18,664 nt of DNA from a virus (lineage: Duplodnaviria; Heunggongvirae; Uroviricota; Caudoviricetes): the IMG/VR virus record IMGVR_UViG_3300045988_130236. One strand, 5' to 3'. Made by a program: the position numbers and the translations under genes. Within the stretch, counting starts at the first letter, position 1. The number at the start of each line of letters is the position of its first letter. Under the pieces are notes generated by a model. That model had not been told where the DNA came from. It saw only the letters and a list, made by a program, of their open reading frames with translations, and searched no databases. Shown here piece after piece: positions 2-8,132 of this stretch.

Positions 2-1837
2 GCCTGGGTGGATGCGCATGGCGAGAAAGAATCGCTGTTTACGGATGAGGCGCAGGCTCACCTCTATGGTCATGTTGCTGGCGCTGCACGTGCTTTCAAT
101 ATTTCCCCTCTCTACTGGAAAAAATACCGTAAAGGACAGATGACCACGAGGCAGGCATATTCTGCCATTGCCCGTCTGTTTAACGATGAGTGGTGGACTC
201 ATCAGCTTAAAGGCCAGCGTATGCGCTGGCATGAGGCGTTACTGATAGCTGTCGGGGAGGTCAATAAAGACCGTTCTCCTTATGCCAGTAAACATGCCAT
301 TCGGGATGTGCGTGCACGCCGCCAGGCAAATCTGGAATTTCTTAAATCGTGTGACCTTGAAAACAGGGAAACCGGCGAGCGCATCGACCTTATCAGTAAG
401 GTGATGGGCAGTATTTCTAATCCTGAAATTCGCCGGATGGAGCTGATGAACACCATTGCCGGTATTGAGCGTTACGCCGCCTCAGAGGGTGATGTGGGGA
501 TGTTTATCACGCTTACCGCGCCGTCAAAGTATCACCCGACACGTCAGGTCGGAAAAGGCGAAAGTAAAACCGTCCAGCTAAATCACGGCTGGAATGATGA
601 GGCATTTAATCCAAAGGATGCGCAGCGTTATCTCTGCCGTATCTGGAGCCTGATGCGCACGGCATTCAAGGATAATGATTTACAGGCTTATGGTTTGCGT
701 GTTGTTGAGCCACACCACGACGGAACGCCGCACTGGCATATGATGCTTTTTTGTAATCCACGCCAGCGTAACCAGATTATCGAAATCATGCGTCGCTATG
801 CGCTCAAAGAGGATGGCGACGAAAGAGGAGCCGCGCGAAACCGTTTTCAGGCAAAACACCTTAACCGGGGCGGTGCTGCGGGATATATCGCGAAATACAT
901 CTCAAAAAACATCGACGGCTATGCGCTGGATGGTCAGCTCGATAACGATACCGGCAGGCCGCTGAAAGACACAGCGGCGGCTGTTACCGCATGGGCGTCA
1001 ACGTGGCGCATCCCGCAATTTAAAACGGTTGGCCTGCCGACAATGGGGGCTTACCGTGAACTACGCAAATTGCCTCGCGGCGTCAGCATTGCTGATGAGT
1101 TTGACGAGCGCGTCGAGGCTGCACGCGCCGCCGCAGACAGTGGTGATTTTGCGTTGTATATCAGCGCGCAGGGTGGGGCAAATGTTCCGCGCGATTGTCA
1201 GACTGTCAGAGTCGCCCGTAGCCCGTCGGATGACGTTAACGAGTACGAGGAAGAAGTCGAGAGAGTGGTCGGCATTTACGCGCCGCATCTCGGCGCGCGT
1301 CATATTCATATCACCAGAACCACGGACTGGCGCATTGTGCCGAAAGTGCCGGTCGTTGAGCCTTTGACTTTAAAAAGCGGCATCGCCGCGCCTCGGAGTC
1401 CTGTCAATAACTGTGGAAAGCTCACCGGTGGTGATACTTCGTTACCGGCTCCCACACCTTCTGAACACGCCGCAGCAGTGCTTAATCTGGTTGATGACGG
1501 TGTTATCGAATGGAGTGACCCGGAGGTTGTGAGGGCGCTCAGAGGTGCATTAAAATGCGGACTGAGAACACCAAATCGTCAGCAAAGAAACGGAAGTCCG
1601 TTAAAACCGCATGAAATAGCGCCATCAGCCAGGCTGACCAGGTCGGAACGATTGCAAATTACCCGTATTCGCGTTGATCTTGCTCAGAACGGTATCAGAC
1701 CTCAGCGATGGGAGCTTGAGTCGCTGGCGCGTGGGGCAACCGTAAATTATGACGGGAAAAAATTCACGTATCCGGTCGCTGATGAGTGGCCGGGATATTC
1801 AACTATAACAGAGTGGAATCAATTTGATGACGGGTAA
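2..1837 (+). CDS. A: Rolling-circle replication initiator endonuclease (P2 gpA-like), 5'-truncated by the window edge
   Basis: Frame is open to the window start (codons at 2-4, 5-7), so the gene continues upstream; the ORF track begins at a GTG at 8. Contains an HUH-type motif (TPHWHMM) and the paired catalytic tyrosines GYIAKYISKN (Tyr codons at 884-886 and 896-898), typical of P2 A-type RCR initiators. The ~609 aa seen here fits the C-terminal part of a ~760 aa A protein. Confidence 0.9.
   Translation, partial: AWVDAHGEKESLFTDEAQAHLYGHVAGAARAFNISPLYWKKYRKGQMTTRQAYSAIARLFNDEWWTHQLKGQRMRWHEALLIAVGEVNKDRSPYASKHAIRDVRARRQANLEFLKSCDLENRETGERIDLISKVMGSISNPEIRRMELMNTIAGIERYAASEGDVGMFITLTAPSKYHPTRQVGKGESKTVQLNHGWNDEAFNPKDAQRYLCRIWSLMRTAFKDNDLQAYGLRVVEPHHDGTPHWHMMLFCNPRQRNQIIEIMRRYALKEDGDERGAARNRFQAKHLNRGGAAGYIAKYISKNIDGYALDGQLDNDTGRPLKDTAAAVTAWASTWRIPQFKTVGLPTMGAYRELRKLPRGVSIADEFDERVEAARAAADSGDFALYISAQGGANVPRDCQTVRVARSPSDDVNEYEEEVERVVGIYAPHLGARHIHITRTTDWRIVPKVPVVEPLTLKSGIAAPRSPVNNCGKLTGGDTSLPAPTPSEHAAAVLNLVDDGVIEWSDPEVVRALRGALKCGLRTPNRQQRNGSPLKPHEIAPSARLTRSERLQITRIRVDLAQNGIRPQRWELESLARGATVNYDGKKFTYPVADEWPGYSTITEWNQFDDG
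1388..1407 (+). other. Putative origin of replication nick region inside gene A
   Basis: Sequence gcgcctcggagtcctgtcaa lies inside the A coding region downstream of the catalytic tyrosines. From memory, the P2 ori nick site is in A and has this or a very similar sequence. Recalled, not computed. Confidence 0.4.
1505..1695 (+). repeat. Direct repeat copy 1 (functional 3' end of gene A)
   Basis: atcgaatggagtgacccggaggttgtgagggcgctcagaggtgcattaaaatgcggactgagaacaccaaatcgtcagcaaagaaacggaagtccgttaaaaccgc... recurs with ~90% identity starting at 1837; similarity decays over roughly 190 bp. Confidence 0.85.
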
Positions 1838-2025
1838 TCGAATGGAATGATCCGGCGGTCGTGAGGGCGCTCAGAGGTGCATTAAAACACGGTCTGAGAA
1901 TACCAAATCGTCAGCAAAGAAACGGAAGTCCGTTAAAACCGCTTGCATTTGTGCCATCGCGAGGCTGATCAAATCAGGTTTGTGATAAATTACTAGTATT
2001 TATATAGACCTCGCTCAGTATGGCA
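1837..2025 (+). repeat. Direct repeat copy 2: out-of-frame remnant of an alternative gene A 3' end (pseudo-fragment)
   Basis: atcgaatggaatgatccggcggtcgtgagggcgctcagaggtgcattaaaacacggtctgagaataccaaatcgtcagcaaagaaacggaagtccgttaaaaccgc... starts on the last base of the A stop codon (TAA 1835-1837). It is shifted out of the A frame and hits a stop after 8 codons. Confidence 0.8.
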
Positions 2026-2254
2026 TCACACAGAAGTAATGTAAGCGTGGGGGGCGTGGTGTACCATTGATATACGACGGTCGAAAATTTACATAGCCGA
2101 TTTCCTGTGATTGGTTTTCGTTATGCACTCTTTTCTGAAGAGATTAACTACTGATAGACTCAGGTTGGATGTCAGAATCGCTATAGATTTCTTGCTATAT
2201 ATGTATTTTTCAATGAAAATGATCTCTGATTTAAACTGTAGTAAGGTGATTGGT

Positions 2255-2743
2255 ATGGATGGTTTATGGGAAAAAATATCGTCATATAATATATTTAATA
2301 ATCTTTTTCCAGGTGCTCTTTTTATTTATCTTCTTGAGAGAATGACGAAGATCGTTTTATCTGGCGATGATTTAATAAAAAATGTTGTCCTCTATTATTT
2401 TGTTGGCTTAGTCATTGGCCGGATTGGTTCTATCGTATTGGAACCTTTTTTAAAACTATCGCGTTTGATTAAGTTTGCTCCTTATAAAGATTATGTGTCA
2501 GCATGTGGTGTGGATGGAAAAATTGAAACTTTGCAAGAGATTGCGAATATGTATAGGACGATATTTTCAATGTCAATTATTCTTTTGGCGACATTGTGCG
2601 TTGTAGGACGGTTTACTGGCGAGACATATGGCTTATCTAAAATAACGTTGGCGGTTTTTGCTATTTTGTTTGTTGTCTCATATATTAAACAAATAAGATA
2701 CATAATATATAGAGTAAATGCTGTTAATAATAAGCTGCCGTAA
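2255..2743 (+). CDS. Small multi-pass inner-membrane protein, unknown function (cargo gene)
   Basis: The ORF track starts at 2111, but the ATG at 2255 has the only good SD (aaggtg, 6 nt upstream). About 162 aa with 3-4 hydrophobic helices (LFPGALFIYLL, VVLYYFVGLVIGRIGSIVL, IFSMSIILLATLCVVGRF, ITLAVFAILFVVSYI). Very AT-rich: 14 G+C in 60 nt at 2281-2340. Confidence 0.6.
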   Translation: MDGLWEKISSYNIFNNLFPGALFIYLLERMTKIVLSGDDLIKNVVLYYFVGLVIGRIGSIVLEPFLKLSRLIKFAPYKDYVSACGVDGKIETLQEIANMYRTIFSMSIILLATLCVVGRFTGETYGLSKITLAVFAILFVVSYIKQIRYIIYRVNAVNNKLP

Positions 2744-2751
2744 GGCAGCTT
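2732..2751. terminator. Hairpin between convergent genes (likely bidirectional intrinsic terminator)
   Basis: aagctgcc gtaa ggcagctt followed by ttt; an 8-bp perfect stem with 4-nt loop between the stop of the + membrane gene (2741-2743) and the stop of the - MBL gene (2757-2759). Confidence 0.55.
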
Positions 2752-2756
2752 TTGAA

Positions 2757-3848
2757 TTATTCTTCGGTTCTATAGTTACTAATGTATGATCGTGGAGTGG
2801 CTGTTTTCCATCCTGCCCTTTCAGGAGCATTATAAAAATGGTACTTACCAAGCCCCTCGGTGGCGATAACTTTCGCTCCTCGTCGAGTAAAGGCATTAAT
2901 TACAGCTTGATGGGGATGTTTATCTGAACCTGGGGCACATGATACAAATGCGGTTATCTCCCTTTTTTCGCCTTCATTTACAATGTTACCAACAAGTTTA
3001 TCGAGAACATCAGGGCCTACATTTCTCCGGCTACCATGATGAGGTACTTGAATGAATCTTAATGATTCTTTATTAATGTATTGGGAGGCTTGATCTAAGG
3101 CTGTTATACCAGCATCGCCAGTGAACACTAACGTTCTTCCATCAATCTCAAGTTTCAAAATGACACTTGAGTTATTTTGTGCCGAGGTGGTATCGTCATT
3201 ATCAATACCTTCATCAGTAAACCATTCAGCAACGTAATCAATAAATTTCTTCGTTTTTTCAACTACAGACTCAAAGACTGCTTTTAGTACTTCAAATCCA
3301 GCTGTATCCTCAGCTTTTTTGGGCATTCTTGCGAAATCAGGTATTAGAGTCTCATAGTAAGATTGGGTTGGCCCGATAACAACCAGAGTAGCATTATCCC
3401 AGGTCATTCCTTGAAAAGGCTCTTTTATTTCAATTCCTTTTTTTTCCGCTAATTTGACAGCGTCATAAGCTTTTTGTAAGTTTTCTTTCATTCGATTTGC
3501 AATACTGGCATCAGTTATCCTGCCATCTGCAAACTCACTTGCGAGACCTTGATTATGTTCCCAAGGCTTATGAATCCAAAACTCTTTTACTTCTGCATTT
3601 TCTAGAACAGATGTAAGTCCACCGACGTGGTCACCATCGGGGTGTGTGGAGATAAGCAAGTCAATAGTTTTTGTGCGGTAGTATTTTTCAATATGCTCAA
3701 TGACTTGTTCTCCGGTGCTGGCATATCCTGCATCAATAACGACAACTTTTTGTTCATCTCTTGAACCATGTAGGTTTCCCCATCTGATGCAGATCGCATC
3801 GCCGCTTTTTTTTTCGCCAACAGCTAGAAAATCAATTTCGTAACCCAT
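2757..3848 (-). CDS. Metallo-beta-lactamase-fold hydrolase, ComEC/Rec2-like, predicted nuclease (cargo gene)
   Basis: 363 aa. MBL signature motifs: VVVIDAG, then LLISTHPDGDHVGG (codons at 3627-3644), then FTGDAG and VPHHGS (His-His codons at 3036-3041). SD aagga sits 8 nt upstream of the ATG at 3848. Lower GC than the phage backbone. Confidence 0.8.
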   Translation of the reverse strand: MGYEIDFLAVGEKKSGDAICIRWGNLHGSRDEQKVVVIDAGYASTGEQVIEHIEKYYRTKTIDLLISTHPDGDHVGGLTSVLENAEVKEFWIHKPWEHNQGLASEFADGRITDASIANRMKENLQKAYDAVKLAEKKGIEIKEPFQGMTWDNATLVVIGPTQSYYETLIPDFARMPKKAEDTAGFEVLKAVFESVVEKTKKFIDYVAEWFTDEGIDNDDTTSAQNNSSVILKLEIDGRTLVFTGDAGITALDQASQYINKESLRFIQVPHHGSRRNVGPDVLDKLVGNIVNEGEKREITAFVSCAPGSDKHPHQAVINAFTRRGAKVIATEGLGKYHFYNAPERAGWKTATPRSYISNYRTEE

Positions 3849-4010
3849 TCCATATCCTTATTAAACTGTGAATTAACATGAATCCAAGATGTTAAATCAT
3901 ATGGATAATAACGCAACTTTTCCGCAGTAAACACTGTGAGCGGATTTAATCTCGTCAGAACTAAAAGCAAGTAGTGTGACGAGGGACAATGAGTCTCTTT
4001 GGGGCGTTGG

Positions 4011-4460
4011 CTATGACACTGACGCAACCAGATTAACGCCGTGAGTCAGCAGATTTGTAATCACACCGGCAATGACCCCAGGAGTCCCATCTTTCACCGC
4101 ACTGATCACTTTATCCCCCATCGTTTCATTTCCACCAAGCACCTCGGGTTTTTTGTTAAGAACTGTGAGCGCTTTTTCAGTAAGTCGAACATCGTAAAAA
4201 TACGACTGATGGTCTGTGTTGTACTGAATGTACCCGTTTTCACAGAGAAAATTGAATGTACCTTCAACCACACTACGCAACTGATTTAACGCTTTCATTT
4301 CTGGTGAGTTAAGTTGGTCAAAGTAGTCATCAGGTAGCGCGGCGTTAAATTTGTCGTAGTTAATCACCTGTGGTACGGGAAAATTTTCCCATAGTACTGC
4401 AAAGATTTCCGCCGTTTGTTGGTTAAATAAATCGAGATTTTTCGACATGCAAAATTCCAT
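4011..4460 (-). CDS. Hypothetical cytoplasmic protein, first gene of the cargo operon upstream of the MBL gene; start ambiguous
   Basis: Open frame 4011-4550 (179 aa) with in-frame ATGs at 4550, 4460 and 4448; none has a strong SD. No TM segments, no Walker or other motif I recognise. Same strand as the MBL gene, 162 bp upstream of it. Confidence 0.5.
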   Translation of the reverse strand: MEFCMSKNLDLFNQQTAEIFAVLWENFPVPQVINYDKFNAALPDDYFDQLNSPEMKALNQLRSVVEGTFNFLCENGYIQYNTDHQSYFYDVRLTEKALTVLNKKPEVLGGNETMGDKVISAVKDGTPGVIAGVITNLLTHGVNLVASVS

Positions 4461-4781
4461 TTCTTTTGATAATGAGTGGGTTAAACGCTGGACGAGGCAG
4501 ATTACCACTCTGGCACAAAACAATGATCTTAGTTCACGCGAAGTTGACATATATACCGATAAGCTGGTTGCGCAGGCAACTAGCGTAGAACTCGCTCAGG
4601 TCATCAAGATGCTATTGAATTATATTCGAATGCACAAATAAAATGATCTGTATCAATCTGTTAGGTGTCGTTTGTAAAAATGTGTGGACACGATTGTTCT
4701 GCTAATTGTTGTCAACATGTGCGTCAACAGTGAGATTGGTGCATTGCGCGGCCAGTGACAACTTTAAAAATTGGCCAAAAC

Positions 4782-4806
4782 CGGCACTATGAATGCCGTT
4801 TTTTTT
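4782..4806 (+). terminator. Intrinsic terminator-like hairpin plus T8 tract
   Basis: cggca ctatgaa tgccg followed by tttttttt (4799-4806) and preceded by aaaa; could also act on the minus strand. Sits between the cargo operon upstream region and cos. Confidence 0.4.
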
Positions 4807-4840
4807 GTGTTTTTTTCTGCGATACTCCTATTTTTAGCAG

Positions 4841-4886
4841 TGCATGCAATATGTGCGTGGTTTTGCATGTGCCTAAGTTGCATGTT
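4841..4886. repeat. Cluster of TGCATG(T/C) repeats adjacent to cos (possible terminase recognition elements)
   Basis: tgcatgc at 4841-4847, tgcatgt at 4865-4871 and 4880-4886, with a related gcacctgcat at 4931-4940, all within ~130 bp of cos. Confidence 0.3.
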
Positions 4887-4964
4887 CTGGCTGTGCACCG
4901 TCAGGACGGACGCCCCTCAAAAGTGGTAATGCACCTGCATTAAAACCGACCTATGAAGCGGGCG

Positions 4965-4983
4965 GGCGAGGCGGGGAAAGCAC
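4965..4983. other. cos: cos site (19-nt cohesive end sequence of P2-type phages)
   Basis: ggcgaggcggggaaagcac matches the P2 cohesive-end sequence as I recall it. Position is as expected: between the non-essential cargo region and the 3' end of portal gene Q. Confidence 0.6.
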
Positions 4984-5124
4984 TGCGCGCTGGCGGTGGT
5001 GCTGATTTTATTTTTTCAGCGTCTGAGCGCGTCGTGAAGGCGCTTAGTCTGCCCGTTGAGGCGTTGGTGTGTCTGCGGGGTGTTTTGTGCGGTGGTGAGC
5101 GTGTGAGCGCGTGATGACGGGGTG

Positions 5125-5148
5125 TAAAAAAGCCGCCCGCAGGCGGCG
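5125..5148 (-). terminator. Rho-independent terminator downstream of Q (end of the leftward P-Q late operon)
   Basis: On the minus strand: stem gccgcc/ggcggc with loop (plus 5132-5147) followed by a T6 run (plus-strand aaaaaa at 5126-5131), directly after the Q stop at 5153-5155. Confidence 0.6.
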
Positions 5149-5152
5149 ATGT

Positions 5153-6187
5153 TCAGCCGTTGTCAGTGTCCAGTGAGTAGTTTTTAAAGCGGATGACCTC
5201 CTGACCGAGCCAGCCGTTTATCTCGCGGATCCTGTCCTGTAGCGGGATAAGCTCATTGCGGACAAAGACCTTTGCCACTTTCTCAATATCACCCAGCGAC
5301 CCGACGTTCTCCGGCTTGCCGCCCATCAACTGAAAGGGGATGCGGTGCGCGTCCAGCAGGTCAGCGGCGCTGGCTTTTTTGATATTAAAAAAATCGTCCT
5401 TCGTTGCCACTTCACTGAGCGGGATAATTTTAATGCCGTCGGCTTTCCCCTGCGGGGCATAGAGAAACAGATTTTTAAAGTTGTTGCGGCCTTTCGACTT
5501 GACCATGTTTTCGCGAAGCATTTCGATATCGTTGCGATCCTGCACGGCATCGGTGACGTACATGATATATCCGGCATGAGCGCCGTTTTCGTAATACTTG
5601 CGGCGGAACAGCGTGGCCGACTCATTCAGCCAGGCAGAATTAAGGGCGCTGAGATATTCCGGCAGGCCGTACAGCTCCTGATTAATATCCGGCTCCAGCA
5701 GGTGAAACACGGAGCCGGGCGCGAAGGCTGTCGGCTCGTTGAAGGACGGCACCCACCAGTAAACATCCTCCTCCACGCCACGGCGGGTATATTTTGCCGG
5801 TGAGGTTTCCAGTCTGATGACCTTACCGGTGGTGCTGTAACGCTTTTCCAGAAACGCATTACCGAACACCAGAAAATCCAGCACAAAGCGGCTGAAATCC
5901 TGCTGGGAAAGCCACGGGTGCGGAATAAACGTTGAAGCCAGAATATTACGTTTGACGTAAATCGGTGAGCTGTGATGTACGGCAGCACGCAGGCTTTTTG
6001 CCAGACCGGTAAAGCTGACCGGTGGCTCATACCATCTGCCGTTACTGATGCACTCGACGTAATCCAGAATGTCACGGCGGTCGAGTACCGGCACCGGTTC
6101 ACCAAAGGTGAATGCCTCCATTTTCGGGGCGCTGGCGGTCATTTTTTTTGCCGCAGGTTGCGGTGTTTTCCCTTTTTTCTTGCTCAT
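5153..6187 (-). CDS. Q: Portal protein (P2 gpQ-like)
   Basis: 344 aa, starts MSKKKGKTPQPAAKK; length and sequence fit P2 Q. Its start overlaps the P stop (TGATG). Confidence 0.92.
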   Translation of the reverse strand: MSKKKGKTPQPAAKKMTASAPKMEAFTFGEPVPVLDRRDILDYVECISNGRWYEPPVSFTGLAKSLRAAVHHSSPIYVKRNILASTFIPHPWLSQQDFSRFVLDFLVFGNAFLEKRYSTTGKVIRLETSPAKYTRRGVEEDVYWWVPSFNEPTAFAPGSVFHLLEPDINQELYGLPEYLSALNSAWLNESATLFRRKYYENGAHAGYIMYVTDAVQDRNDIEMLRENMVKSKGRNNFKNLFLYAPQGKADGIKIIPLSEVATKDDFFNIKKASAADLLDAHRIPFQLMGGKPENVGSLGDIEKVAKVFVRNELIPLQDRIREINGWLGQEVIRFKNYSLDTDNG

Positions 6188-7959
6188 CAGTAAAACTCCA
6201 GAATGGTGGATGTCAGCGGGGTGCTGATACCGGCGGTGAGTGGCTCATTTAACAGGGCGTGCATGGTCGCCCAGGCGAGGTCGGCGTGGCTGGCTTCCTC
6301 GCTGCGGCTGGCCTCATAGGTGGCGCTGCGTCCGCTGCTGGTCATGGTCTTGCGGATAGCCATAAACGAGCTGGTGATGTCGGTGGCGCTGACGTCATAT
6401 TCCAGACAGCCACGGCGGATAACGTCTTTTGCCTTGAGCACCATTGCGGTTTTCATTTCCGGCGTGTAGCGGATATCGCGCGCGGCGGGATAGAACGAGC
6501 GAACGAGCTGGAACACGCCGACACCGAGGCCGGTGGCATCAATTCCGATGTATTCGACGTTGTATTTTTCGGTGAGTTTGCGGATGGATTCAGCCTGGGT
6601 GGCAAAGTCCATGCCTTTCCACTGGTGACGCTCAAGTATTCTGAATTTGCCACCGGCCACCACCGGCGGTGCCAGCACCACGCATCCGGCACTGTCGCCA
6701 CGGTGTGACGGGTCGTAACCAATCCATACCGGACGTGAGCCGAACGGATTGGCGGCAAACGGCGCATAGTCTTCCCATTCTTCCAGCGTGTCGACCATGC
6801 AGCGTTGCAGCTCCTCGAACGGGAACACCGACGCCTTGTCGTCAACAAATTCACACATGAACAGGTTTTTAAAATCGTCGGCGCTGTTTTCACGTTTGAG
6901 CTGCTCAATGTCGAACAGTGTGCAGCCACCTTTCAGGGCATCCTCAATGGTGACAATCTGCCGCCACTGGCCGTCCGCACAGAGAAGACCACCGGCAAGG
7001 GCGTTATGACTGACGTCGATTTCCACGCGTTCGGCGGCGCTGGCGCGTCCCCGGTTGAACAGTTCACCTGACCAGAACGGGTAGGCGTCGTGCGCCAGCG
7101 TGGACGGGGTGGAGAAATAGGTCGAGCGCAGGTGACTCTGTGAGGCCATACCTGATGCTACCTTACGCAGTACCTGAAAATTCGGGATCCAGAAAATCTC
7201 GTCGACGTACAGGTCGCCGTTATGGCTCTGTGCGGTGTTGGAGTTGGTGCCGAGAAAAATCAGTTTTGCACCGTTATTGCCCAGGACAATCGGGTCACCG
7301 GTCAGGTCAACGTCAACCAGCCGGGCAAAGGCAATGATGTATTCGCGGAACACATACGCCTGCGTTTTACTGGCCGACAGAAAAATCTGGTTATGGCCGG
7401 TTTTCAGGGCGCGCAGCAGCGCCTCGCGGGAAAAATAAAACGTCGCGCCAATCTGGCGGGATTTCAGGATATCGCGGATGCGGTGCTCAAGCCCGGCGCG
7501 ATACCAGTGCAACTGATATTCGAAAGACTGCTCAAAGAAAATCTGCTCCAGCTTTTCGATGGCCTCGTCGCTGAAAAAATTCTTTTTCGGTTTGCGACGC
7601 CCGCCTTTGTTGCGGTTAGCGACGTTCGGATTAAGGTCTGCCTCGTTGCCGGTCTGACTGTAGCGGTTTACCCGTGCCAGTCGTTCAATCTGGCGTCCGA
7701 GCAGGTCAATTTCCTTGAAGTCACCGCCGGTTTTCTGCGGTTTTATGATGAGCTGGGTCAGCCGCGCTTCCAGACTCATTTCGACACGGCTGATGGGAGC
7801 AACGCTGTCCCAGCCGTCGCGCTGTTTCCAGCTCTGCACCGTCGGGCGTTTCATCTGCAACATGGCGGCAATCTGCGGCACGGAAAACCCCTGCCAGTAC
7901 AGCAGCGCCGCCTGACGACGCGGGTCGTGTAAAAGAGTGGTGTCTGTGGTGATGGTCAT
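6187..7959 (-). CDS. P: Terminase large (ATPase) subunit (P2 gpP-like)
   Basis: 590 aa from the ATG at 7959 (MTITTDTTLL); the ORF track extends 10 codons further to 7989. Length matches P2 P; divergent from O across a shared control region. Confidence 0.92.
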   Translation of the reverse strand: MTITTDTTLLHDPRRQAALLYWQGFSVPQIAAMLQMKRPTVQSWKQRDGWDSVAPISRVEMSLEARLTQLIIKPQKTGGDFKEIDLLGRQIERLARVNRYSQTGNEADLNPNVANRNKGGRRKPKKNFFSDEAIEKLEQIFFEQSFEYQLHWYRAGLEHRIRDILKSRQIGATFYFSREALLRALKTGHNQIFLSASKTQAYVFREYIIAFARLVDVDLTGDPIVLGNNGAKLIFLGTNSNTAQSHNGDLYVDEIFWIPNFQVLRKVASGMASQSHLRSTYFSTPSTLAHDAYPFWSGELFNRGRASAAERVEIDVSHNALAGGLLCADGQWRQIVTIEDALKGGCTLFDIEQLKRENSADDFKNLFMCEFVDDKASVFPFEELQRCMVDTLEEWEDYAPFAANPFGSRPVWIGYDPSHRGDSAGCVVLAPPVVAGGKFRILERHQWKGMDFATQAESIRKLTEKYNVEYIGIDATGLGVGVFQLVRSFYPAARDIRYTPEMKTAMVLKAKDVIRRGCLEYDVSATDITSSFMAIRKTMTSSGRSATYEASRSEEASHADLAWATMHALLNEPLTAGISTPLTSTILEFY

Positions 7960-8132
7960 GAATACCTCGCCGTGATGAATACACGGCAAGGCTACTGAGT
8001 CGCGCCCCGCGATTCGCTAAGGTGCTGTTGTGTCAGTGATAAGCCATCCGGGACTGATGGCGGAGGATGCGCATCGTCGGGAAACTGATGCCGACATGTG
8101 ACTCCTCTAATCACTATTCAGGACTCCTGACA
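7960..8132. promoter_or_regulatory. Divergent late promoter region (expected Ogr-dependent P_P and P_O)
   Basis: Intergenic region between divergent P and O, where P2 places its late promoters. I found no exact TGT-N12-ACA activator dyad by eye, so this rests on gene organisation only. Confidence 0.35.

Follow-up and report, generated by a model that had tools for sequence, protein, structure and literature searches.

Which gene is the partner of the ComEC-like metallo-β-lactamase (MBL)-fold protein carried by a P2-like prophage of Escherichia coli, and what might the two proteins do together? The question is raised by a stretch of 18,664 nucleotides (IMG/VR record IMGVR_UViG_3300045988_130236; hereafter the window), which is a P2-like (Peduovirus-type) prophage and to which a RefSeq chromosome is 100% identical across the region. 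Between the replication gene gpA and the portal gene gpQ, an interval known as the cos-proximal hotspot of P2-like phages and as the site of old and tin in P2 (PMC9122126), the window encodes a 363-residue MBL-fold hydrolase on the minus strand (2757-3848; WP_001752366.1), and a gene for a small soluble protein lies upstream of it on the same strand. An initial annotation had taken these two genes for an operon, in which the small protein would serve a predicted nuclease as a sensor serves an effector or an antitoxin a toxin. It had missed the conserved partner, a gene on the plus strand (2255-2743; WP_001752365.1) that encodes a four-helix membrane protein of 162 amino acids and converges on the MBL gene, the two stop codons lying 13 bp apart. 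The partner of the MBL protein thus sits on the opposite strand, and the pair first proposed consists of chance neighbours from two different blocks of cargo.

An MBL-fold protein paired with a membrane protein

The 363-residue reading frame exists as first described and is supported by its open reading frame (ORF), by Pfam, by PADLOC and by RefSeq, with AGGA 6 nt ahead of the ATG. The four MBL motifs are in place (VVVIDAG at residue 35, STHPDGDHVGG at 67, FTGDAG at 242 and VPHHGS at 268), Pfam Lactamase_B (PF00753) matches at 46.2 bits against a cut-off of 22.7, and the PADLOC profile PDC-M48B matches with E 7e-101. The metal ligands proposed from the sequence (H69, D71, D73, H74, H270 and H271) were numbered correctly and, like D39, H93 and D245, show no variation across 43 homologues that reach down to 50% identity; the family as a whole yields more than 1,100 matches in several phyla. 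With a profile built from the 43 homologues, the best solved relatives are the MBL domains of ComEC (9ic4, E 2e-11; 30bt), and the AlphaFold2 model (predicted local distance difference test score, pLDDT, 89; predicted template modelling score, pTM, 0.89) has the ComEC domain 9ic4 as its top Foldseek match (E 2e-13, target TM-score 0.75), followed by the phosphorylcholine esterase Pce (E 1e-10), RNase J and CPSF73/Integrator-type nucleases, and also by small-molecule phosphodiesterases. No hydrophobic segment, signal peptide or transmembrane segment was found in the protein. Checked against housekeeping families, it is neither glyoxalase II (GloB, 17 vs 200.8 bits) nor another housekeeping MBL; it also falls below the curated NCBIfam cut-offs for RNase Z and the β-lactamases, and 6A-MBL (34 bits, cut-off 220) is a different family.

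Among defence proteins, PADLOC matches the window MBL to the MBL associated with LmuA of Lamassu (2e-29, residues 13-285), to that associated with DRT/RT systems (3e-20) and to Avs1a (2.5e-14), and all relatives that have been characterised use the MBL as their effector DNase (PMC12799240, PMC12642450). Because the ligands are invariant, the nearest structure is a ComEC MBL domain and MBLs with demonstrated DNase activity are among the homologues of the protein, the ComEC-type assignment of the initial annotation stands, and sequence and model together indicate that the 363-residue protein is probably a nuclease. Its public name, 'ComEC/Rec2 family competence protein', is nevertheless misleading; it also matches PHROG 7043 (1e-153), a family labelled 'tail protein', of whose 1077-position profile only positions 619-901 are aligned. 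An apparent length difference of 330 bp in some E. coli matches proved to be an artefact of joining separate BLAST matches, with no insertion behind it.

The convergent ORF on the plus strand matches the companion PADLOC profile PDC-M48A (E 1.7e-50), after which we call its product M48A. Both proteins are 100% identical to those of system #34 ('Lactamase_B') in Table S5B of Rousset et al., which is recorded with 107 occurrences in the same hotspot and with the remark '4 TM in protein 2'. In a census of gene context that covered 35-40 loci, M48A adjoins the MBL gene in all 21 informative loci of the 22 from IMG/VR, in convergent orientation as in the window in 13 and co-directionally, in either order, in the remaining 8. 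The adjacency recurs outside viral loci in Faecalibacillus (Firmicutes), where the two genes overlap and stand beside a gene for a DUF4365 protein, in Porphyromonas gulae (Bacteroidota), where the pair rides on a conjugative transposon, and in an uncultured gammaproteobacterium. Across loci, moreover, the divergence of M48A and that of the MBL are correlated (r 0.83). We consider it very probable that M48A is the true partner of the MBL protein.

As to gene arrangement, the two genes converge in all enterobacterial P2-type loci; the stop codons lie 13-40 bp from each other with no intervening terminator, and the transcripts must therefore overlap. In other phyla they are co-directional, often with a 4-bp overlap. 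A divergent MBL subfamily of ~315 residues, missed by Pfam and by a custom hidden Markov model, is also paired with M48A (loci L015, 5510-6469, and L043, 4504-5451). Its motif II reads H-I-T-S-W-D-x-D-H, a Trp replacing the first His of H-x-D-x-DH, and NNNST, GD and AHHG are retained.

The homologues of M48A (n=188, 158-190 residues) begin at the Met of the 162-residue form, which rules out a 210-residue reading of the gene from a TTG start. The AlphaFold2 model (pLDDT 90.6) has four long helices, which on one side are joined by very short loops; transmembrane segments were called from hydropathy, from these helices and from the Phobius note of Rousset et al. The positive-inside rule predicts that the C-terminus and the K/R-rich loop at 63-101 are cytoplasmic, and the invariant polar residues (K7, S9, S10, Y11, N15, R56, S59, E63, N98, R101, T102, K145 and Q146) cluster at the helix ends beside the K/R-rich loops, that is, on the face assigned to the cytoplasm. 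Such a conserved cluster is more readily understood as a surface on which a cytosolic partner docks than as an external sensor domain. We found no match of M48A to the ComEC competence domain. Many database records name the protein 'phosphohistidine phosphatase', misleadingly, as it contains no His and has four transmembrane helices.

Where MBLs of the M48B type occur without M48A, another membrane protein takes its place: this was so in 7 of 7 cases (Vibrio, Chromobacterium, Salinisphaera, a Ralstonia peduovirus, and plasmids of Acinetobacter, Rhodococcus and Burkholderia). These alternative neighbours have two N-terminal and two C-terminal predicted transmembrane helices around a soluble middle, and they belong to a family of about 210 residues (Vibrio, Chromobacterium, Salinisphaera and the Burkholderia plasmid) or to one of about 245-270 residues (the Ralstonia peduovirus and the Acinetobacter and Rhodococcus plasmids), of which the 268-residue Ralstonia representative gave no significant BLASTP match to the ~210-residue family. 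Since a transmembrane neighbour is found in every case inspected, the conserved unit is an MBL together with a small polytopic membrane protein, the membrane component being exchangeable.

The settings of these loci are those of defence and of mobile DNA. The Vibrio loci lie between a type I restriction-modification system and other defence-like genes, and further copies of this type of pair are found on conjugative or Tn7-like elements and on plasmids. In three Vibrio loci (L005, L006 and L007; 5180-5836 and 7778-13092) the pair stands between a type I restriction-modification system (or an AAA_15 ATPase with a large helicase) and a cluster of VWA, PP2C, protein kinase and AAA_11/12 helicase genes; an ORF of 177-218 residues upstream matches the PADLOC candidate PDC-S63 (2e-7), and the whole is a dense island of candidate systems.

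Proposed mechanism and competing explanations

The hotspot location, the defence-like flanks in Vibrio, the copies on mobile elements and the origin of the PADLOC candidate in guilt-by-embedding are the reasons for which we read the module as a defence system, and an anti-phage role seems reasonably likely. The explanation that we favour, with a probability of about 0.5, is that the MBL is a DNase effector controlled or positioned by M48A in the service of phage defence. The MBL would be the cytosolic, metal-dependent DNase of a two-gene anti-phage module, and M48A, at the inner membrane, would dock it through its conserved cytoplasmic face and so restrain or position the nuclease. A membrane cue during infection (DNA injection, perturbation or depolarisation) would then license the MBL to cut DNA, whether only that of the phage as it comes in at the membrane or all DNA alike, in which latter case infection would be abortive. 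Switching would take place without a protease, unlike that of the related nucleases HamM, Avs1a and CanC. The division of labour, with the MBL as effector and M48A holding, positioning or restraining it, is put forward tentatively. More doubtful is a wider generalisation, in which small four-helix membrane proteins from at least three unrelated families, alike in their layout of two N-terminal and two C-terminal predicted transmembrane helices, would dock the DNase at the inner membrane under protease-independent control, forming a 'split ComEC' that destroys DNA during its injection by a superinfecting phage or sets the nuclease free on membrane perturbation.

Several observations weigh against the favoured explanation. 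(i) M48A has no informative fold match, and the ~210-residue family that replaces it is not recognisably related to it (hhalign probability 1%), which suits a generic membrane anchor as well as a specific sensor. (ii) The enterobacterial M48A and MBL genes are convergent and do not form an operon. (iii) The second-best fold matches of the MBL are Pce and small-molecule phosphodiesterases, so that DNA is no more than its probable substrate. (iv) A low-confidence loop of the MBL (residues 182-196) falls in the interval of the inhibitory loop of HamM (184-203; 10.1101/2025.09.03.673762), and its retention leaves room for some gating, even by a host protease.

The roles could also be the reverse of those proposed, with M48A killing the cell by forming a pore or otherwise disrupting the membrane, once activated by an MBL that senses or processes phage nucleic acid. 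Small multi-transmembrane proteins are indeed common suicide effectors, as in CBASS, Thoeris and retrons (PMC9122126), and the swapping of partner families with the same predicted transmembrane layout, one of which weakly resembles Csx27 (6e-5), also speaks for this reading. Against this, the MBL is the effector DNase in every characterised relative (PMC12799240, PMC12642450), the outer loops of M48A are very short and its cytoplasmic-side residues strongly conserved, more in the manner of a docking surface, and no holin or pore family matched M48A above noise; we regard the reversal as unlikely. The resemblance to Csx27, a membrane protein associated with type VI-B CRISPR-Cas13b, is a weak PADLOC match of the ~210-residue partner in Vibrio navarrensis (L005, 7094-7735), with E 6e-5 and residues 22-201 aligned to positions 20-194 of a 206-position profile.

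An equally improbable account dispenses with immunity altogether: the MBL, working with a membrane protein as a phosphodiesterase or esterase, would have a lipid, the envelope or a small molecule as its substrate, as in lysogenic conversion, or else would be a nuclease serving the prophage life cycle or competition with plasmids. The Pce match (E 1e-10) and the other phosphodiesterase fold matches speak for it, as does the fact that the P2 hotspot also holds non-defence cargo, namely partition systems, toxins and acyltransferases (PMC9122126). However, the MBL is closest, in sequence and in structure, to ComEC nuclease domains and defence DNases, it carries neither a signal peptide nor a transmembrane segment, and the module turns up repeatedly, in several phyla, on mobile elements and in defence islands, besides having been listed as a candidate through guilt-by-embedding.

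In a third alternative, the nuclease would be switched on by a protease. Three studies of 2025 showed ComEC-like MBL nucleases to be widespread immune effectors and described HamM, the Avs-associated MBL and CanC as pro-nucleases: two loops lie over the active site and are cut after a conserved Ile by a linked trypsin-like protease, or after a Gly by a caspase; the DNase so freed depends on Zn and brings the infected cell to death or arrest (PMC12799240; PMC12642450; 10.1101/2025.09.03.673762). The window MBL could be a pro-nuclease of the HamM/Avs1a kind that is cut by an unlinked protease of host or phage. It is homologous to such proteins through the region of the insertion (residues 13-285 on the model of the LmuA-type MBL), the loop at 182-196, the only disordered stretch in its model, lies where the HamM loop does, and its I116 aligns with I136 of Avs1a. 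Yet no protease is linked to it: neither an ORF nor a Pfam match for a protease was found between gpA and gpQ (1838-5152), and there was no protease gene beside any distant relative inspected, whereas a control Avs1a locus does have its serine protease. The window MBL was aligned, together with six relatives, to a single Avs1a that is annotated as such in RefSeq and whose gene precedes one for a serine protease. The Avs1a sequence shows I136-S137 and I237-S238, matching the positions reported for EpiAvs1a (I134) and VcMBL (I133/S134 and I232/S233), and each of the seven M48B-type or M48A-linked MBLs has deletions where Avs1a has the segments, of 7 and 17 residues, that bear these Ile-Ser sites. 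The region around residue 116 is a confident helix in the model, segment 177-200 contains no conserved residue, and the NCBIfam Avs1a model scores 62 bits against a cut-off of 420. On sequence and model, then, the window MBL belongs to the same nuclease lineage but lacks two features that define its protease-gated members, namely the cut-site loops and a linked protease. That an unlinked protease gates it is, in our view, quite unlikely.

The operon of the 145-residue protein and the MBL, as sensor and effector or as antitoxin and toxin, is barely credible: the two genes share a strand, are separated by 162 bp with no terminator-like site and stand side by side in 23 genomes of E. coli and in 5 viral contigs, but their independent distribution and the homology breakpoints largely refute it, the small protein being confined to Enterobacterales while the MBL and M48A families span phyla, and no homologue of it lying upstream of the MBL in distant loci.

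Two cargo blocks in one hotspot

The hotspot is bordered on the left by the replication endonuclease gpA (8-1837, plus strand; PF05840, E 5e-119) and on the right by the portal protein gpQ (5153-6187, minus strand; PF04860). The terminase gpP (6187-7989, minus strand) follows, and beyond it lie the GPO scaffold, P2-type capsid, small terminase, gpL, baseplate J and tail fibre genes. In the interval between the two borders, G+C drops from 53-57% to 32-43%. In this hotspot Rousset et al. counted 1,650 different arrangements of genes and came upon many defence systems (PMC9122126); the match of P2 itself to the window is limited to 4834-5100, beside cos.

Here the hotspot contains two independent blocks of cargo, delimited by blastn breakpoints. 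The first, the M48A-MBL cassette (1824-3850), recurs at ~71% nucleotide identity in E. coli NS-NP030 and in phage 12W, both of which lack the 145-residue gene, and the homology ends at the start codon of the MBL gene. The second (3851-4828) holds the 145-residue gene, is absent from 12W and NS-NP030 and, from about 4006-4027 onward, is common to prophages and phages with other cargo; it is contiguous with the cos-proximal backbone. Just past the gpA stop codon, at the left edge of the stretch common with phage 12W, lies a 125-nt non-coding direct repeat (1834-1958, plus strand) that is 89% identical to the gpA codons at window positions 1502-1626. It is probably the scar of a recombination event that brought in the cassette with the 3' end of a donor gpA. 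Scans of the cargo with Rfam and for inverted repeats found nothing, and a promoter scan found fewer sites than in shuffled sequence.

The small protein of the second block had been given as one of about 145-179 residues. The longer frame (4011-4550) exists and its product is soluble, with no hydrophobic segment, but a length of 179 residues is ruled out by its homologues (142-145 residues long), by PHROG 2266, to which residues 1-142 align at positions 1-143 of 144, and by the RefSeq start at 4448; the supported form has 145 residues (4011-4448, minus strand; WP_001752367.1) and stands outside the MBL system. It adjoins the MBL gene on one strand, as first read, yet the supposed unit dissolves into two independently distributed elements. 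By tblastn against a phage database, the 145-residue protein was found in 10 records (from Klebsiella and Salmonella phages and Escherichia phage Midge) and the MBL in 7 (including 12W, D8, 11W, P24E6b and the Ralstonia peduovirus), with no overlap between the two sets. Among 5,426 complete E. coli genomes, the gene occurs in 79 and the MBL region in 45; both are present in only 23 of the 101 genomes that have either, all 23 being at least 99% identical to the window, whereas 56 carry the 145-residue gene only and 21 the MBL pair only. It accompanies M48A in 5 of 22 viral loci, and those five are near-identical. The cos/portal region follows directly on the MBL region in NS-NP030 and phage 12W, and in strain D3 and phage Midge the 145-residue gene follows DinI; no homologue of it was seen upstream of the MBL in any distant locus inspected. 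The family comprises 69 sequence clusters, of which all those named for an organism are from Enterobacterales. Because distribution in phages and in E. coli genomes, breakpoints and phyletic range all differ, the 145-residue gene is not the dedicated partner that had been proposed; it is unrelated to the MBL module and confined to P2-like prophages of Enterobacterales. The two genes may be co-transcribed in this prophage, which would then be an accident of juxtaposition.

Searches of the 145-residue protein against Pfam, PADLOC, NCBIfam and the PDB (phmmer and profile) returned only noise, including weak, sub-threshold winged-helix-like matches (RQC, RecJ_C and FapR, E 0.2-0.4), and the label 'T7 5.5/5.7-like' that it bears in phage Midge could not be reproduced. 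After the region of these weak matches, its C-terminus (window 4011-4100) forms a conserved tail rich in Gly and hydrophobic residues, GTPGVIAGVITNLLTHGVNLVASVS; such features may point to a small protein that binds DNA and ends in an amphipathic tail. A 64-residue ORF on the plus strand (4447-4641), with no Pfam match, diverges from the gene, the two start codons overlapping by 2 nt, in an arrangement that resembles a small regulatory unit. It is annotated as hypothetical in O157:H7, in ST147-VIM1phi7.1 and in phage Midge, and is unannotated in the strain identical to the window. In two MBL-free prophages, those of E. coli O157:H7 FRIK944 (L016, 2948-4376) and Klebsiella phage ST147-VIM1phi7.1 (L003, 906-2334), the cargo beside the 145-residue gene consists of a small ORF, an XRE/helix-turn-helix regulator and a reverse transcriptase, with the look of a retron-like or DRT-like defence module.

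Relation to known systems

The pair of MBL and M48A is already catalogued and is uncharacterised. PADLOC candidate PDC-M48 and system #34 of Rousset et al. (2022) are one and the same, with the same two proteins in the same hotspot and identical content, and both are bioinformatic listings, given without phenotype or mechanism; the PDC candidates arose from guilt-by-embedding in known systems and were not tested one by one (Payne et al., 2024). The systems that Rousset et al. describe in their Table S2 do not include the pair, and a literature search for PDC-M48, for the RefSeq accessions and for MBL-plus-transmembrane defence, outside which many subscription papers lay, found no experimental test and no naming paper. 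The initial annotation had recognised no named defence system here, which is right for the 145-residue protein and the MBL but not for the MBL and M48A. The slot between gpA and cos/gpQ is that of old and tin of P2, which are likewise accessory and protect the lysogen (PMC9122126), although the proteins are unrelated.

With ComEC/Rec2 the MBL shares its nearest solved structure, the H-x-D-x-DH and PHHGS motifs, and the association of this type of nuclease with a membrane component. ComEC, however, is a single polypeptide of ~700-800 residues with OB, polytopic 'competence' and MBL domains, whereas the window MBL has 363 residues and no transmembrane segment. PF03772 does not match it, and TIGR00361 aligns residues 220-331 to model positions 558-660 with 49.2 bits, against a cut-off of 190. 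With neither the full-length architecture nor a score above the cut-off, the window MBL is not a ComEC. The P2 cargo of E. coli is not known to play a part in transformation.

Membrane-sited immunity offers a second parallel. Zorya (ZorAB with ZorC/D) and Kiwa (KwaA with KwaB) join a membrane component to a cytosolic component that targets DNA. The likeness lies in a membrane part with a cytosolic partner, a layout that suggests sensing at the site of infection; it is an analogy only, as we found no relationship of sequence or fold. Were the 'split ComEC' idea correct, it would link the ComEC uptake nuclease, the gated pro-nucleases and membrane-sited immunity of the Zorya and Kiwa kind. The module would also be easy to study, comprising two genes in 1.6 kb that are native to E. 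coli prophages.

A further parallel is with HamM, Avs1a and CanC and with the Lamassu- and DRT-associated MBLs. Akin to these, the window MBL has the homologous domain with ComEC-like motifs, would act as a stand-alone cytosolic protein (they measure ~360-400 residues) and is encoded beside a putative regulator; in contrast to HamM, Avs1a and CanC, its neighbour is a small polytopic membrane protein and not a trypsin-like protease or a caspase. The module represents a large, cross-phylum branch of the ComEC-like MBL nuclease family in which the protease and the cut-site loops were lost or never present and, should it prove a working defence, it would provide a second, membrane-based way of licensing the same dangerous enzyme. 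Relative to the characterised systems, it takes up the theme of the MBL nuclease effector with a different kind of partner.

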